Positions 2,173-30,749 of a stretch of 35,314 nt of DNA are shown in pieces (the stretch's first letter is position 1; each line of letters starts with the position of its first letter). The DNA is taken from contig JYFJ02004046.1 of assembly GCA_000934665.2 (NCBI GenBank), positions 1 to 35,314 on the forward strand, read 5' to 3'. The stretch comes from Catajapyx aquilonaris (taxonomy: Eukaryota). A program made the translations under genes and the position numbers. Under the pieces are notes generated by a model that did no database searches, was not told the DNA's origin, and saw only the letters and a program-made list of their open reading frames with translations.

Positions 2173-3120
2173 AAAGATCGGATGACAGCCTACTACCTGT
2201 GATCTTACGAGAGACGCAGGGCGTGTGTCCCATTTAATGGGACACCATATGCGGCCCGGATCTCCATTAAATTAATGTGCAGTTAAAACCGTTTAAGAAA
2301 GATCGGATGGTACCTACTACCTGGGATCTTTCGGGACACGCAGGGAGTAGGGCGTGTGTCCCGTTAAATGGGACAAAAGATCGGATGGTGCTTACTACCT
2401 GGATCGTTCGGGACACGCAGGGAGTAAGGCGTGTGTCCAGTTTAATGGGACAAAAGATCGGATGGTACCTACTACCTAGATCTTTCGGGACACGCAGGGA
2501 GTATGGCGTGTGTCCCGTTTAACGGGACGATAGATCGGATGGTACCTACTACCTGGATCGTTCGGGACACGCAGGGAGTAGGGCGTGTGTCCCGTTAAAT
2601 GGGACAAAAGATCGGATGGTGCTTACTACCTGGATCGTTCGGGACACGCAGGGAGTAAGGCGTGTGTCCAGTTTAATGGGACAAAAGATCGGATGGTACC
2701 TACTACCTAGATCTTTCGGGACACGCAGGGAGTAGGGCGTGTGTCCAGTTTAATGGGACAAAAGATCGGATGGTACCTACTATCTGAATCTTCGGGACAC
2801 GCAGGGAGTAGGGCGTGTGTCCCGCTTAATGGGACAAAAGATCGATGGTACCTACTACCTGAATCTTTCGGGACACGCTGGGAGTAGGGCGTGTGTCCCG
2901 TTTAATGGGACAATAGATGGGATGGTACCTACTATCTGAATCTTCGGGACACACAGGGAGTAGGGTGTGTGTCCACTTTAATGGGACAAAAGATCGGATG
3001 GTACCTACTACCTAGATTTTTCGGGACACGTAGGGAGTAGGGCGTGTGTCCCGTTTAATGGGACACCAGATGCGGCGATTCAATTACGACGATATCCATT
3101 AAGTTAATGTACAGTTTTGA
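2173..3120. repeat. ~77-bp GC-rich minisatellite, 10 copies plus one diverged copy, with internal inverted repeats
   Basis: GATCGGATGGTACCTACTACC...GGGACAAAA units start at about 2301, 2379, 2456, 2533, 2610, 2687, 2764, 2840, 2916 and 2992. A diverged unit lies at about 2176. Confidence 0.95.
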
Positions 3121-19917: not shown

Positions 19918-20916
19918 TATATGTAAACAACTGACGTACGAGTATTTGTATTACTCGTAATTGTATTACAATTTAATTATTTTTTAAAAATCTTCATATA
20001 GCGGTAATTCACAGTCACAATTTTAATGGCAAATATTTAAAATGAACTTAATTTTAACTTAATGAAAAAAACTTACATAATTTTAAAAATAACCAACTAA
20101 TATAAGCAACTGTTATTTCACACATCTGTAAACAATTGAAATTTCATTTAAAAAATCTTGCATGACCTATGACCTAAGGTCAGGCCTAGGTCTCCAATTG
20201 AAAACATTCAACCGACATGGAAAATGCGCCAGAGCTCACAGGGTACAAATTATCAACTTTGTAACATTTTTTTGCGACCCCCCCCCCCCCGACCCCCATC
20301 AATTTTTTTTTTGTTTGTTCACTCGGGGGGTTTTTGTTCTTGTAGATGGCAACGGGCAGGCTTCCAAAGGGGCGAGGAAGAAGCCGAGAAGAATATTTAT
20401 GACAACGTGCCCAAATTGGATTACTTTCAAAAGAACCTTACAGTTAATTCTAGATGAGAGAAAACAGGCGGAGGTTTCTCTCTAGCTTGTGGACACATCC
20501 TCTTTAAAGGCTGGATCATATCCATCAAAGTCCGGTTAAGAATTGGCCAACCGTTAATTTGTTGACAAACGGGAATTCCTTGCATCGACCCAACGTCCGA
20601 TAAAATTGTTTGGTCCTTTACACGTTTATTTATTTATTTATTCAATAGTTCCTACTCCCATCCACCAGAGGCTCTACCTCCACCAATTGCTCATGCGTAG
20701 AACGGGGCTAATCAGAAGCCTCGGTTATACCACAAAATATTTTTCGAATATTTATTTACGGTATGTATTTAGTTAGTTAGTTAGCAGTTCCTCTTTCCAT
20801 CCACCAGAAGCGCTGCCTGCACCCATTGCGTATCTAATTGCGCATGGGCAGAGCGGGAGCCAATCGGAAGCGTCGCGCAAACAATATACGGCGGGCCAAT
20901 CGGTCCTACACGGAAT

Positions 20917-21153
20917 TAGGGCTGTGCGATATTTCGATACATCGACTGTCAATACGATATTTTCCTAATATCGAAGTTGCGATATCCGACGCTTGGCATG
21001 TGTGATATACTGTATTGAATATTGCCATGTCGGTTTGCGATATTTTGCGATATTTTTCGATGTCGGTTTTTCAATTTTCGATATATCGACTTCGATTCGA
21101 TATTTTTTGAGTATCGAAAGTCGATATGAAATTTCGTATATCGCACAGCCCTA
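20917..21153. mobile_element. hAT-type MITE, copy 2
   Basis: TAGGGCTGTGCGA...TCGCACAGCCCTA. TSD CACGGAAT/CACGAAAT. Confidence 0.9.
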
Positions 21154-21267
21154 CACGAAATCGTTTTAATATTTCTGTACTTATTTGTTTGGTTTTTTGC
21201 TTATTTATTAAATAGCAAGTTGTAAATAAATAAATTTTATTTATTTATTTACAACTTCCTACTTAAT

Positions 21268-21438
21268 GCTGTGCGATATACGAAATTTCATATCGACTTT
21301 CGATACTCAAAAAATATCGAATCGAAGTCGATATATCGAAAATCGAAAAACCGACATCGAAACGACATCGAAAAATATCGCAAAATATCGCAAAATATCG
21401 CAAAATATCGCAAACCGACATGGCGATATTCAATATAT
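21268..21438. mobile_element. Inverted partial copy of the hAT-type MITE
   Basis: Reverse complement of about 21010-21149. It lacks the terminal TAGG and a TSD. Confidence 0.85.
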
Positions 21439-23362: not shown

Positions 23363-23539
23363 CCAAGGATAGGGAAGGAAGGAAGCGGCTGTGGCCTATT
23401 ATACGGAAGCGACCCCGGAATTTTCCTAAAAAGACCGTGGAAAACCACAGAAAACCACGGTCACGGTTGCCGGCCCCGGGATTCGAACCCAGGACCTCCC
23501 GATTAGCAGTCTGACGCCCTATCCACTATGCCAACCTGC
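23363..23539 (-). mobile_element. tRNA-derived SINE family A with intact pol III head
   Basis: Minus strand A box TGGCATAGTGG (23533-23523) and B box GGTTCGAATCC (23489-23479). The body matches 4415-4545. Confidence 0.85.
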
Positions 23540-23564: not shown

Positions 23565-23859
23565 TAGGGCTGTACGATAATTCGATACATCGATTGTCGA
23601 TACAATATTTTTCTAATATCGAAGTCGCGATATCTGACGCTTATGTGCGATGTATCGAATATCGCGATTTTTCGATGTCGCTTTTCGTTATTTTTTGATG
23701 CCGGTTCGATGTCGGTTCGATGCCGGTTCGATGTCGGTTCGATGCCGGTTCGATGTCGGTTCGATGTCGTTTCGATGTCGGTTTTTCGATACATCGACTC
23801 CGATTCGACATTTTTAGTATCGAAAGTCGATATGCAATTTCGAATATCGCACAGCCCTA
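23565..23859. mobile_element. hAT-type MITE, copy 3
   Basis: TAGGGCTGTACGA...TCGCACAGCCCTA. TSD AATACAGG/AATACATG, with an internal 11-bp TCGATG(C/T)CGGT array. Confidence 0.9.
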
Positions 23860-24978
23860 AATACATGTTCTAGGCCATGTTCTTTGCTTGATAGATTTTC
23901 AAAATAATTTTATTGGTCATCTGGACAAACCATTGGTGGTATGCACACCTTCACATTAAGCTGAGTCTGATCATAGAGTTTTTCTTTCGACTCTAACCAG
24001 TCTTAAGTCAAATTTTCTTGCACTGGTAAGACATGTTCTAATCCATGTTTATTGCTTAGTTTTTTTTAAAGAATTTCATTGGTCGCCTTGAGGAACACTA
24101 TCCAGCTTTACCCCAAACACTAGACAGGATCGTACCTGTATTTGCTAAGAGCAACACGATTCGACCTAGAAATGGTCCTAACCTGAAACCTTCTTTTACT
24201 TTATCCCTAGTTTTTAAGGATTCCAACCAGGAAATGTTATTCGAGCTTCTGAAGCTACGTATAGAGGGGGGGAGCTTGTATTTTGAATGGAAAAGGAGGA
24301 AAGGGAGGGTTTTTGGTGTGGAGGGGGAGGGGGTCTTACTGTGCCAAAGGAAGTTTGCTTCCGAGAACTTTGCACAAGAAGGGGGTGCCCTCAAGTTTCC
24401 CTAAAAGGGTGCTCTCTAATGAAGTTCGGGGGGGGGGGGGNGGCAAAGGAAGGCCCCCTTTCCCTCTACCCACTCTCCCAATCCCTCTCCCCACCACCTC
24501 TTTCACCGCCAGCCCCTCCCAAATGATACTGCTAGAGAAAGTTGGCGGTGAATTAGACTACTAGCGAACTGCATTTTCACCTAATTACTTTCAATTAAGT
24601 GCAATTCTTTAAGTCATAATGGCATCTGGGAGGGATTCGTTGAGACCGTTTGATTACCGTTAACTGCGTTCGGAAATAAAATGATTGATTGCTAATGAGT
24701 GGAGGGTGGCAGTTAACAAGTAAATAGTTCGTTGAAATGACGCCTGACAAAAAGGCAGGAGAGAGCAAATAATTGAGGTATTTAAAATTAACATTATATC
24801 ACGCCCATTGGTCTAATTAGGTACAGAAATATTCATTCGTGGGCAGATTTTAATAAGCAAATTAACAATGGATGAAAAATGTAATTAAGCGTGACTAGAA
24901 ATGGGCTCGTGTTTTTTTCACTAATGAGTAGTTAGCGAAAAAGTATTGAAATAACTCTCCAACTGCTGTTACGTATAA

Positions 24979-24984
24979 TTTATT
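24979..24984 (-). terminator. Candidate polyadenylation signal AATAAA of the minus-strand gene
   Basis: TTTATT on the + strand about 70 nt past the stop codon. Confidence 0.45.
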
Positions 24985-25052
24985 CCAAATCAGCATTATG
25001 ATGAGCAGATATTAATTTTTATAAGTCATATTGGTGCACATTTAGTGTTGCT

Positions 25053-25149
25053 CTAGAAGCTATCAGGGTCATCTCGACGAAAGTCCCGACTCATTGGACG
25101 ATGACGTGACATATACTTATTTCGTGTCAGCAGTCCTCTTGTGGAGAAC
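25053..25149 (-). CDS. Exon 9, terminal (FSTRGLLTRNKYMSRHRPMSRDFRRDDPDSF*)
   Basis: Acceptor TTTTCAAAATAG|, phase 2, TAG stop, AATAAA about 70 nt downstream. Confidence 0.6.
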
Positions 25150-27382
25150 CTATTTTGAAAATAGTGTACTCATAAATCTAAAATTGCCAAAGTGAATCAC
25201 TCAGTCACACAGTCACACAATCACACAGTCACACAGTCACACAATCACACAGTCACACAGTGAATCATTCCCAAGTGAATCACACTTACAGTGATGATTG
25301 GTCAACACTAGGGCTACTTCGGGAGTATGGACGCACCAATTCCATATCGATGTTGTGATTGGTTGAACTAGGAGTACTATTGCTAGAATGACCCTCAGAA
25401 AATTCTAGTAGAGACGTATGTCTATCTGGTATGCTTCTAGATTGGGCCCTCCATGTTGGCTTCCAGGAAAGTGCTGCGTCGAACAACCTTCGACTTTCAA
25501 TGTCCAATATACTGTTCTGAAATCTTCGAGTTGTTAGAACCATGTTAAGTTATAAGACAAGTTTTTACCTCATGATTTTCAGGATGACGTGTTCTTTGAG
25601 GCATTTGAGGGGACTGGTACGATGCTGGGTACATGCCGGATATGGGATATTCTTCAGGATGAGTATTGAGATTAGGTTTCTCTATGGTCCATCTGAGGAA
25701 ACATAAGTTAACAACAATAGAATTTTTAAGTCAAATGCATGCGTACGTTTGTTTGGAGTAGAACTTGGCAATTTCTTCGTTAACAGGAGTGTCATCATGC
25801 AAATTCCATCCCATCTCTGCAATGATGTCCTTAGCATCTTCGTTGTCTTTCCTTAAAGACTCAGCAACCACCTCAAACTGATTGAAATGTGACACCATAT
25901 TGTCCAGCACTTGAGTTGACATACGAATCGCCTCCAGAGTGTCACTCCAATTGGTGACAATAATTTTTTCCATCACTGTGCTCTTTTTCATCCACTTAAA
26001 TTCTTGCAACAGAATTGGTGAGGCCACATGGGCTTTCCTAGATGAGTACAATTGATGGTAGAATCAAAATAAATTGTGAGACTGAGAATGGTATGACGTC
26101 ACGTTCAGCCACCCGCATGCTCAGCGCAGCGGAGTGATTCGGGGCCTTGATTGGCCGGAGTGGAGGCGGGTGGCTGAACGTAACGTCATACCATTCTGTA
26201 GTTTACAAAATGGAAGTGTACTGAACTGTTTCAGGATCCATGCTTCTTTCTGGAGGTTCATGAGGAAATTCAGAGTATTTCTGACCTTGATTGAAGGCAC
26301 ATTTGCACTGTTGAAAAATATTGTTAAAATATGACAAATTAAATTTGACCCCATATTTACCTGAGGTAACTTAAGAAGCGATACACATCATCATTCGGCT
26401 TGTATTGTTGCCATAGTCGTAACAACCAGTGGTACAAATTTCGGATACTGATCAGATGCTTCTGCGCATCATGATGACACAAATGTAATTCGTCAATCAA
26501 CTCCTGTTGTTCTGCAGTTACACCAGGCATGCCATGAGCTGTCAGTATGTTGATCATCAACACATGTGCGTTTCCAAAGTTCAGAGTGTGACTGTGATGC
26601 CATGCGATACACCGACGTATGCACTTCATCAGACCTTCTTCTTTCCTACATAAAAAGTACGTTGTTACACCCAAATTTGTACAACTGATACTGACTTACT
26701 TCACAAGTTTGACAACTTCCTTCATGAAGAGACGAGTTAGCGTAGTAGATTCGAGGTCACTATGAACTCTAGAGGTCGCCACTGACGATTGGCGACCAGG
26801 AAGAAGTCGTCCACTCATAGAACGATCTGATACATACTTCTTAGGTAACAAGTGGCGAATTCTTACTGAAGAATTCTCATTGACCTGATTGGAAGCTGAG
26901 AGGACAACAATAAAATATATGCTAACTACAATCAGAATTGTTTACATACCACAATGTGATTCGAATGTCTCTGGAGGCTTGGTATAATTGCGAGCCTTTT
27001 GTTGGCTGGGATCTCCATCACTGTTATGCTATTGGGGGATATTAATATTAACATTGAACCATGTTTTAAGTATGTAGCATAGTACCTGGCAGTTATTTGA
27101 TGTACTGGGTTTACTATCAGGGATTTCCAACGATTTGCCTTCATCTAGTTCTAAAACTGACAACAATATTTTTTGGAGTTCAGAACCCATATTCGACTCC
27201 TTTTGTTCTATAAGTTCTTTCACTTTGTTCTCAAGAGTCGCGATTTTTAAGTCTACATATCGCAAAGTGTCCTGGCAGTTGCAACTTGTCCTCTCTGTCA
27301 CTTGAGTACTTTCATCATCAGGTTCTTCTGAAGTGTTGTTATTATCGGTAGCATCCCATGGAAGACCTTCATCAGCCTCCAT
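25053..27382 (-). CDS. Spliced 9-exon gene model, uncharacterised protein of about 563-565 aa (possibly transposon-borne, or recently frameshifted)
   Basis: Exons 27382-27086, 27028-26950, 26895-26700, 26645-26361, 26307-26207, 26037(or 26032)-25747, 25692-25569, 25516-25290, 25149-25053. GT-AG introns of 57, 54, 54, 53, 169(174), 54, 52 and 140 nt. Phases match at 7 of 8 junctions and splicing removes the in-frame stops. ATG at 27382, TAG ending 25053, AATAAA at 24984-24979. Confidence 0.8.
25190..25285. repeat. (CAGTCACA)n microsatellite inside intron 8
   Basis: 8-bp units bracketed by AAGTGAATCAC at 25190 and 25273. Confidence 0.9.
25290..25516 (-). CDS. Exon 8 (NSILDIESRRLFDAALSW...SVDQSS)
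   Basis: Acceptor ATTTCAG|, donor CT|GTAAGT. If unspliced, it ends at TAA 25288-25286. Confidence 0.75.
25569..25692 (-). CDS. Exon 7 (WTIEKPNLNTHPEEYPISGMYPASYQSPQMPQRTRHPENHE)
   Basis: Acceptor TTTCCTCAG|, donor GAG|GTAAAA, 124 nt, phase 2 to 0. Confidence 0.75.
25747..26037 (-). CDS. Exon 6 (KAHVASPILLQEFKWMKK...EIAKFYSKQT)
   Basis: Acceptor CATCTAG| (or AAAG| 5 nt later), donor AC|GTACGC. Matches ORF 25731..26051. Confidence 0.78.
26085..26197. mobile_element. 113-bp GC-rich MITE inserted in intron 5
   Basis: AGAATGGTATGACGTCACGTTCAGCCACCCGC...GCGGGTGGCTGAACGTAACGTCATACCATTCT (32-bp inverted repeat, 1 mismatch). TSD unclear. Confidence 0.82.
26207..26307 (-). CDS. Exon 5 (SANVPSIKVRNTLNFLMNLQKEAWILKQFSTLPF)
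   Basis: Acceptor TTTTTCAACAG|, donor T|GTAAAC. The phase of the downstream junction is ambiguous, and a second frame is also open here. Confidence 0.62.
26361..26645 (-). CDS. Exon 4 (KEEGLMKCIRRCIAWHH...VYRFLSYL)
   Basis: Acceptor TTTTTATGTAG|, donor AG|GTAAAT, 285 nt open. Matches ORF 26357..26674. Confidence 0.8.
26700..26895 (-). CDS. Exon 3 (ASNQVNENSSVRIRHLLPKKY...LFMKEVVKLV)
   Basis: Acceptor TTGTCCTCTCAG|, donor AA|GTAAGT, 196 nt open, phase 1 to 2. Confidence 0.78.
26950..27028 (-). CDS. Exon 2 (HNSDGDPSQQKARNYTKPPETFESHC)
   Basis: Acceptor CAATAG|, donor G|GTATGT, 79 nt, phase 0 to 1. Confidence 0.75.
27086..27382 (-). CDS. Exon 1 (MEADEGLPW...PSTSNNCQ), acidic N-terminus plus probable coiled coil
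   Basis: 297 nt from ATG to CAG|GTACTA donor. LRYVDLKIATLENKVKELIEQ has a heptad-like pattern. Confidence 0.78.
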
Positions 27383-28099
27383 TGTTAATTTTTTTAACTA
27401 ATTTGGTTGGCAACTACAATAAGTGACAAATATTTTAACATTAGATCACCAGTATTGATAACTTATTTAAAAATGGTACCAACAATGAAACCATAACAAA
27501 ATAGGTTAGGTATCACTGCAAATAGTAGAGCTCTTGATTTTACTTTCCTCAACAGAATGAATTATTCATTGTTGCTTTTTCTCATCATAAAAATGAACAC
27601 TAGTTGAAATGTTGTTGCATACGGTTCGAATGAGCACATTTCCGGAAATAACACCAAACTGAGTTAATTTTCATACCATATGTGATGCATGCTTTAAGCA
27701 CGCAACTATGCTTCGTAAAATGTAAAAATAAATACACATACCTTAATTTTGATTAATGTTTGACGATCGTAAAATTTTGACCTGCCGAAGTTCCGCCAAA
27801 TTTTGGCAATAATAACATGTTTAACTTGAGTTTCCTAGGCAATCTTACAACAATGGTGTACACTGTGGCCAGATTCAATGTGGCAACACTGCTGGTTGCC
27901 ATGGAGCTATGTACTGTACGGCTACTATTACATGCTCTAGTATTTTCACATCTGACAGTATTGATAAAACTATAACATATAAAGTGTACGATTTTATCCA
28001 CTATTTTTATTAAATTTACATTGTTGATTCTAACATGACCTCACGTACCTCAATAATTGGAGCAAGGTAAATCCACACTCAAATTCCGCCTCTCTAGCG

Positions 28100-29520: not shown

Positions 29521-30095
29521 CAAAACCAGAATGCAGACCATCTGTCGCGACTTGGCCCCGACGGCCATATTTCCTCCCGGGGACTTCCCCGTTATTATCT
29601 CTTCCTCTCGAAGTTTGGTCGGCCTCCGGATAAAAGATGTGGCTTCTTGGTAACCGCCAGCACCACCCCGAAAGCAAATCCGGCGGCCCCCTTCTCCATT
29701 TATAACAGTAGAAAATTGGACAGTGGCTTGCCTAAGGAGAAACAAAGACGGGTTGGCAGGGGGTGGGAGGGACAAGGGGGCAGTAAAACATGGCGGAGCT
29801 TCCGGGTGATGTACGAGGAGTTTGAAGTGGAAGCCATGGCCAATTAAAGTTATCCGGGTCAGTTTGATTTTGCTTTTGTTTCCCTTAGGTCAGGGTTGAT
29901 TAGAATGCTCAGGAAGTTCCAGAATATATTGCGTAGAGCTAGTGCACTACAGTGTAGATTGAATAGCACTATACAAAATTGGGAAGGAACTTGTAATCTG
30001 TTTCATATTATATTGTGCATATTACATTTGGTAGAAAGAGTTAATCATGATAGTACAGTGTTCTAATGCATAGGATTAACATAATCCAACTTCAA

Positions 30096-30511
30096 AGGGA
30101 CACTCCACTCAAAAAACAAGTTTCGCTCTAAAAATCGGGCAAAAAATCCTGAATCCGAAGGTGCAATCCGTTTTTCGCTACGCGGAACGGTAATCCCAGT
30201 GCCAGGGGTCAAAGTGGGGAAATTCAAATAGTGCGCTATATAAGCTGGCCGTCCGCCAGTGACGCCCTCGGGACCTTGGGAACTGGAGGGCTGCTCCCGC
30301 CTGCCCGCGCGCTTAGGCCCATACCAGAGCGGTGCAGCCCTCCAGTTCCCCTGCTCCCCGCGTGGCGGCGCCGCTCATTAGCAGACGACACGCTTTGACC
30401 CATCGCCCTGGGATTACCATTCCGCGTAGCGAAAAACTAATTGCACCGTCGGATTCAGGATTTTTTGCCCGATTTTTAGAAACAAACTTGTTTTTTGAGT
30501 GGAGTGTCTCT
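30096..30511. mobile_element. Kolobok-like MITE (AGG termini, TTAA-type TSD), ~105-bp TIRs, GC-rich core
   Basis: TCAA|AGGGACACTCCACTCAAAAAACAAGTTT...AAACTTGTTTTTTGAGTGGAGTGTCTCT|TTAA. Confidence 0.82.
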
Positions 30512-30749
30512 TTAAGTACAAAGGGCAGTTACTGACTGTTAACTGAGTAAGTCACATTTGAGCCAACAACTGATACTTTGACTAAATTACAACTGGTAAA
30601 GCACTCGTAATTTATCTAAAATAATGTGGGTGAGACGAAAATTATTTTCGTCCCACTGCAGCTACTGTACAGCTAACTTAGCAGTAACCATTCCCAACAC
30701 TGGCACTGCTTAGAAGTAACTAGCAGTGGGGCGAATATTCCACCCTGAA

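Follow-up and report, generated by a model that had tools for sequence, protein, structure and literature searches.

Gene model on the minus strand

The DNA examined here is a stretch of 35,314 nucleotides (nt) from the arthropod Catajapyx aquilonaris (NCBI GenBank assembly GCA_000934665.2, contig JYFJ02004046.1, positions 1 to 35,314), referred to below as the window. Between positions 27382 and 25053 its minus strand carries what is probably an unannotated orphan gene, predicted from the sequence. Nine exons separated by eight GT-AG introns can be joined there into a coding sequence of 1692 nt, or 563 codons, from ATG to TAG. A listing of GT..AG pairs was used to build the model, which is a single one leading from ATG 27382 to TAG 25055–25053. 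The frame is open across every junction from the ATG to the stop codon, with the proviso that junction 5 needs either an AAG acceptor at 26033 or skipping of exon 5. A first-pass annotation of this DNA had proposed just such a nine-exon minus-strand frame through eight GT-AG introns, and our reconstruction reproduces it.

Exon 1 (27086–27382, 297 nt) starts with the ATG at 27382–27380, upstream of which lies an in-frame TAG (27400–27398), and codes for an acidic N-terminus as well as a short heptad-like stretch. It is followed by exon 2 (26950–27028, 79 nt), by exon 3 (26700–26895, 196 nt), which encodes a serine/arginine-rich linker, and by exon 4 (26361–26645, 285 nt), whose product is predicted with low confidence to be all-helical. 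Exon 5 (26207–26307, 101 nt) is the least certain exon of the model. Exon 6 (25747–26032, 286 nt) carries a long-helix prediction, exon 7 (25569–25692, 124 nt) is proline/glutamine-rich, exon 8 (25290–25516, 227 nt) encodes a serine-rich tail, and exon 9 (25053–25149, 97 nt) a basic C-terminus that ends at the TAG 25055–25053. An AATAAA polyadenylation-type signal is found at 24979–24984 on the same strand, 68 nt past the stop codon; the first-pass annotation had likewise placed an AATAAA after the stop.

At the other end of the gene there is an unsupported candidate for a 5' extension (27398–27512, minus strand). In this region 15 codons begin with an ATG near 27494, and a 52-nt GT-AG interval (27449–27398) would join them in frame to a point 15 nt upstream of ATG 27382.

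The eight introns measure 57, 54, 54, 53, 174, 54, 52 and 140 nt in order of transcription, and six of them thus fall between 52 and 57 nt. These six short introns are intron 1 (27029–27085, GTACTA...AATAG, guanine-plus-cytosine (GC) content 0.30), intron 2 (26896–26949, GTATGT...CTCAG, GC 0.30), intron 3 (26646–26699, GTAAGT...TGTAG, GC 0.33), intron 4 (26308–26360, GTAAAT...AACAG, GC 0.23), intron 6 (25693–25746, GTACGC...CTCAG, GC 0.31) and intron 7 (25517–25568, GTAAAA...TTCAG, with a CTAAC motif 17 nt before its end). The two long ones are intron 5 (26033–26206, GTAAAC...GGAAAG), which has a weak acceptor, and intron 8 (25150–25289, GTAAGT...AATAG). All eight are of the GT-AG type with an A at position +3, their donors being GTAAGT, GTATGT, GTAAAT and similar sequences. 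The acceptor is YAG in all introns except one, and most acceptors are preceded by pyrimidine-rich tracts, while branch-like YTRAY motifs occur 13–38 nt from the 3' end in six of the eight. Read-through from the upstream frame runs into a stop codon in every intron, so that the short intron lengths and the in-frame stops given by the first-pass annotation both hold. The exons have GC contents of 0.40–0.47, compared with 0.23–0.33 in the six short introns.

Comparison with chance expectation

The locus was also analyzed by a strict search, in which dynamic programming admits only introns of 48–62 nt of the form GT[A/G]...YAG. This unbiased search independently recovered introns 1–4 and 6–7 exactly, with 1121 coding nt in the first half of the gene and 671 coding nt in the second. 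When the same search was applied to 1000 sequences of 3 kb simulated with a first-order Markov model, it yielded a mean of 362 coding nt (standard deviation 97) and a maximum of 812, and none of the 1000 simulations reached 1121 nt. For the second half the comparison was made at 637 nt, the length of exons 6–8 of the model, rather than at 671 nt, and 21 of the same 1000 simulations reached this length. An earlier run of 200 simulations agrees with the result of the strict search.

Two further measures set the gene apart from its surroundings. Codon periodicity in the coding sequence has a chi-square value of 41.0 (p = 3 × 10−7), which exceeds the value of every one of 500 control concatenates assembled from 160 other open reading frames (ORFs) of the window (mean 10.9, standard deviation 5.2, maximum 32.2). 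The splice sites of the six short introns, scored against a general splice-site consensus, have a mean donor match of 3.17 out of 5 and a mean acceptor pyrimidine score of 9.0, whereas the means for the 3109 other GT..AG pairs of 48–62 nt in the window are 1.34 and 6.45, respectively. Not one of 20000 random sets of six window pairs equalled the mean site quality of the short introns.

The simplest alternative is that there is no gene at the locus, and that chance open frames in non-coding DNA happen to be joinable by accident. Such an explanation gains something from the lack of any detected homologue and from a permissive version of the splice model, which counts against a real gene. When introns of 48–180 nt are allowed under minimal site rules, chance frames rival the 1748 nt that the gene attains, with simulations averaging 1165 nt and reaching 1670 nt, and with up to 1790 nt obtained elsewhere in the window. 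As the permissive model fails to separate the gene from chance, it is the short-intron model and the quality of the splice sites that make the gene significant. Under the strict model the gene signal is clearly beyond chance. The strict-model length, the periodicity and the splice-site quality all argue against an accident, as do the contrast in GC content between exons and introns and the arrangement of the ORFs: three ORFs of 110–122 amino acids (aa) follow one another on the minus strand at 25731–27397, among 25 ORFs of at least 110 codons in the window, most of the others being located inside tandem repeats. We consider it very unlikely that chance explains the locus. The intrinsic evidence from the strict search, the periodicity and the splice sites is strong, and supports the view of the first-pass annotation that the gene is real or was real until recently.

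The next-best path found by the strict search (28864–27753, minus strand, 848 nt, chi-square 24.5) was rejected as an artefact, as it consists of 145-nt tandem repeats and includes a 10-nt exon and poor splice sites.

The two long introns and the problem of junction 5

Intron 8 contains a microsatellite with an 8-nt unit (25197–25261, 8.1 copies), flanked by two copies of the 11-nt word GTGATTCACTT that lie 83 nt apart. When one 83-nt duplicated unit is taken out, 57 nt remain. Intron 5 contains a hairpin element of 113 nt (26085–26197, GC 0.58) with 32-nt inverted arms that are 97% complementary. Its small size and terminal inverted repeats are those of a miniature inverted-repeat transposable element (MITE), and the first-pass annotation had given it that name. 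The flanks of the element, which on the minus strand read ...AACTAC and CAGTCT..., show no visible target-site duplication, and the only sequences in the 35-kb window that match it are the two arms of this single copy; to call it a MITE is reasonable but unproven.

Both long introns had been said to shrink to minimal size, namely to 56 and 57 nt, once the inserted sequences are removed. This is correct for intron 8. For intron 5 the figure of 56 nt depends on a TAG acceptor at 26038, and with this acceptor the reading frame shifts. With the AAG acceptor at 26033, which preserves the frame, intron 5 measures 174 nt, or 61 nt after subtraction of the hairpin element.

Junction 5 is the sole real blemish of the gene model. 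The TAG acceptor at 26038 is stronger than the AAG at 26033 and lies 5 nt upstream of it. Joining exon 5 to TAG 26038 (model C) produces a frameshift and a stop at codon 320. With exon 5 kept, the frame survives only through an AAG acceptor located 5 nt past a better TAG. The three good donors, at 26221, 26206 and 26191, are all in phase 1 and fit only AAG 26033 or another AAG at 26003. The sites of intron 5 are also the weakest of the eight, with a donor score of 2 out of 5, an acceptor score of 6 and an intron GC content of 0.49. If exon 5 is skipped and TAG 26038 is used as the acceptor (model B), the transcript is in frame with 531 codons. We nevertheless retain exon 5 in the main model because it has an exon-like GC content (0.40) and is preceded by the textbook 53-nt intron 4.

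These properties raise the question of whether the gene is a very recent pseudogene, or whether its main transcript undergoes a frameshift at junction 5 and is degraded, the rest of the gene having stayed intact because little time has elapsed. The stronger TAG, with which none of the three good phase-1 donors is in frame, and the weakness of the intron 5 sites are in line with decay, and so are the insertions or expansions taken up by two introns and the lack of relatives that show constraint. Other features are hard to reconcile with it. In AT-rich DNA, the other eight exons contain no stop or frameshift over the 1692-nt model; junction 5 itself has two in-frame solutions, model B and the AAG solution (model A); and the hairpin is wholly intronic and cannot by itself shift the frame. 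Moreover, if the assembly had a single base wrong in the T-run ahead of the donor, the result would look identical to a genuine defect. We regard a pseudogene or a degraded transcript as unlikely.

Predicted protein

The predicted protein has a clear internal layout. Residues 1–35 are acidic (isoelectric point 4.1), residues 86–180 are serine-rich and basic, residues 181–415 are 46% hydrophobic, and residues 416–563 contain 17% serine and 9% proline. Single-sequence AlphaFold2 predictions were made for pieces of the protein corresponding to individual exons. The exon 4 piece is modelled as five helices with a predicted local distance difference test score (pLDDT) of 48, and the exon 6 piece (94 aa) as a 74-residue helix spanning residues 5–78 together with a short one, with a pLDDT of 82. 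Composition and the exon 4 and exon 6 models agree with the helical core and the serine/proline-rich tail that the first-pass annotation had described. The acidity that it assigned to the N-terminus is borne out, and the coiled coil is unproven. A crude heptad scan of the protein flags only residues 30–65, with a score of 0.77, and 14 of 200 shuffled sequences score as high.

The product would then be a protein of about 563 aa (531 aa without exon 5) in which an acidic N-terminus and a serine-rich linker precede a helical core of some 235 residues, with a serine/proline-rich tail at the end. The helical core may make protein–protein contacts, and the flexible serine-rich parts may be subject to regulation, by phosphorylation for instance. 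The protein bears neither a catalytic signature nor that of a known domain, and for this reason it appears most likely to serve as a helical scaffold or adaptor without enzymatic activity. This functional assignment is tentative and we hold it with some doubt: the heptad signal is not significant, and a Foldseek comparison of the exon 6 model with the PDB returned no matches.

Homology searches

Searches for related proteins were run exon by exon on pieces of 75–99 aa. Three of the pieces were searched by word-based methods, and the exon 6 piece alone was searched exhaustively. No homologue was found in protein libraries, Pfam, the PDB or metagenomes for the exon pieces searched, and the orphan status reported in the first-pass annotation stands as far as these searches reach. 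This outcome detracts from the case for a functional gene, as no relative was found that could show purifying selection. Exon-by-exon, mostly word-based searching may miss distant relatives.

The word-based search covered the longer sequences of a collection of 5.8 billion proteins and produced 39 candidates for exon 4, 108 for exon 1 and 63 for exon 8, none of which scored. The exon 6 piece, searched exhaustively with phmmer among 1.84 billion representatives, hit three proteins, here labelled P0001, P0002 and P0003. P0001 is a bacterial ResIII/DEAD helicase-like protein of 1731 aa in which a repeat motif at the C-terminus resembles the exon 6 piece, the rest of the protein being unmatched; in P0003, too, nothing outside the motif matches. 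Both share a common repeated module of 29–41 residues (NEDAK-x-I-x4-GW ... EIA), and the motif is 37–45% identical to residues 50–90 of the exon 6 piece. The library E-value of 1.5 × 10−14 is a sum over up to six near-identical repeats. One repeat contributes about 27 bits, and in a library of 2.4 × 10^11 residues such a score by our estimate falls far short of significance. We judged the matches to P0001 and P0003 to be chance resemblances inflated by repeats. P0002, a repetitive protein without a single matched stretch, was rejected as repeat-inflated as well.

Comparison of six exon pieces with Pfam gave nine sub-threshold rows of 12–18.4 bits, against cut-offs of 22.1–30.4, and none at the cut-off. 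The families concerned (Thioredoxin_8, RPW8, IstB_IS21, DUF7795, GvpD_bR2, EntA_Immun, KIF21A, DUF6108 and MCM_C) were all discarded, their scatter over unrelated families being what is expected for helical pieces of low information content. The same six pieces had no match in PHROGs or NCBIfam. Sequence searches of the PDB returned one and two rows with E-values of 0.78–0.95, nothing usable. In the ESM Atlas, unnamed bacterial clusters came out best for the exon 4 piece (0.91, low recognition) and were not accepted, and the exon 6 piece returned nothing usable. Metagenomes contained 67 pattern-matching stretches, two of which passed; these two amount to the seeded 8-residue word in a 747-aa ORF of bacterial type in which the other exons are unmatched, and they were likewise set aside. 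Among viral contigs, 18 stretches matched the pattern and none was confirmed.

Genomic surroundings

The window is rich in repeats and has a GC content of about 41%, with 51 rows of tandem repeats and many hairpins. An orphan gene in such surroundings could be something other than a single-copy host gene: it could belong to a mobile element or have been copied by one, or it could be a fragment recently duplicated from a parent gene at another site in the genome. The density of repeats would suit an origin of this kind, and orphan status is typical for the passenger genes of mobile elements. The region 24900–27500, however, contains no long terminal, inverted or direct repeats that bracket the gene. 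The six exon pieces had no matches to transposase, integrase or viral families, and the Pfam cut-off was reached by none of the 73 other ORFs of at least 75 aa in the window, which gave one sub-threshold row, in a tandem array. Eight spliceosomal introns would also be unusual in transposon cargo. An origin from a mobile element or a recent duplication thus appears improbable. With none of the other ORFs at the Pfam cut-off and the next spliced path a repeat artefact, the locus is by these tests, as the first-pass annotation had stated, the only credible coding locus in the 35 kb.

Several other features of the window were observed. A sequence resembling tRNA-Ser(GCT) lies at 23468–23539 on the minus strand and scores 31.8 bits with Rfam, against a gathering score of 29. 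It adjoins a repeat unit that recurs at 20917–20994 with 90% identity and a microsatellite with an 11-nt unit (23697–23783), with flanks extending to 23870, and it may represent the head of a short interspersed nuclear element (SINE) derived from a transfer RNA, not a working tRNA gene. Ten tandem units of 77 nt, 90% alike, occupy 2298–3065, within the kilobase that has the highest GC content of the window (0.50). A large hairpin at 30094–30513 has 121-nt arms (91%) and another at 21055–21362 has 95-nt arms (99%); both look like foldback or MITE-type elements. Finally, a C run and a G run at 20271–20299 and 24419–24447, one of which includes an N, are 83% complementary across a distance of 4.1 kb, and may be homopolymers of the kind prone to misassembly.

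Relation to known gene classes

The first-pass annotation had singled out the uniform 52–57-nt introns as a peculiarity of this gene. Intron lengths in Drosophila have their mode at about 60 nt. The many short introns of the present gene lie near the minimal length as do those of the Drosophila minimal-intron class, and they are AT-rich GT-AG introns with branch-like motifs near the 3' end, in an arthropod other than Drosophila. A passage of Haddrill et al. 2005 (PMC1273634) describes short introns that cluster around a minimal length as the norm in Drosophila, by which account the peculiarity was overstated, and part of another study (PMC3060096) gives minimal introns in general a narrow optimal length range.

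The orphan status can be placed in a similar context. Wissler et al. 2013 (PMC3590893) put the typical share of orphan genes in the gene set of a genome at 10% to 30%. Like the orphan genes of insects and other arthropods, the gene described here combines an ordinary gene structure with no detected similarity outside its lineage, in this case by exon-by-exon searches only. Uniform mini-introns and orphan status are both expected in arthropods, and the uniformity of the introns marks a genuine gene rather than a curiosity. The first-pass annotation is sound gene finding with one wrong detail, the treatment of intron 5.

Interpretation

Judged from the DNA sequence alone, this is probably a real gene that is spliced essentially as modelled. 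It would be an arthropod nuclear protein-coding gene that is either confined to its lineage or changes too quickly in evolution to be traced. The minus-strand transcript would have its eight GT-AG introns removed by the ordinary U2-type spliceosome through intron definition, and would end at the AATAAA signal. The six introns of 52–57 nt would represent the minimal-intron class of the species, and introns 5 and 8 may be two more minimal introns that grew, one by acquiring the hairpin element and the other by duplication of a microsatellite, with the exons untouched and without harm to the gene.

A more specific scenario is that the gene is the founding member of a family confined to one arthropod lineage, having arisen de novo or diverged past recognition, and that it encodes a new helical domain with exon 5 as a regulated cassette. 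Inclusion of exon 5 needs AAG 26033 and skipping needs the TAG located 5 nt upstream, both in frame, and the two choices must therefore be coupled if exon 5 is a cassette. We consider this scenario rather doubtful.

If the gene is real, spliced essentially as modelled, it opens no long-standing question. It would be one more gene annotated in a repeat-rich and otherwise gene-empty 35-kb stretch of arthropod DNA, and another case of a taxonomically restricted gene. Of modest value in addition would be a junction (junction 5) whose frame is kept only if an unusual acceptor is used or an exon is skipped, and two minimal introns that tolerate a hairpin insertion and a microsatellite duplication, respectively.

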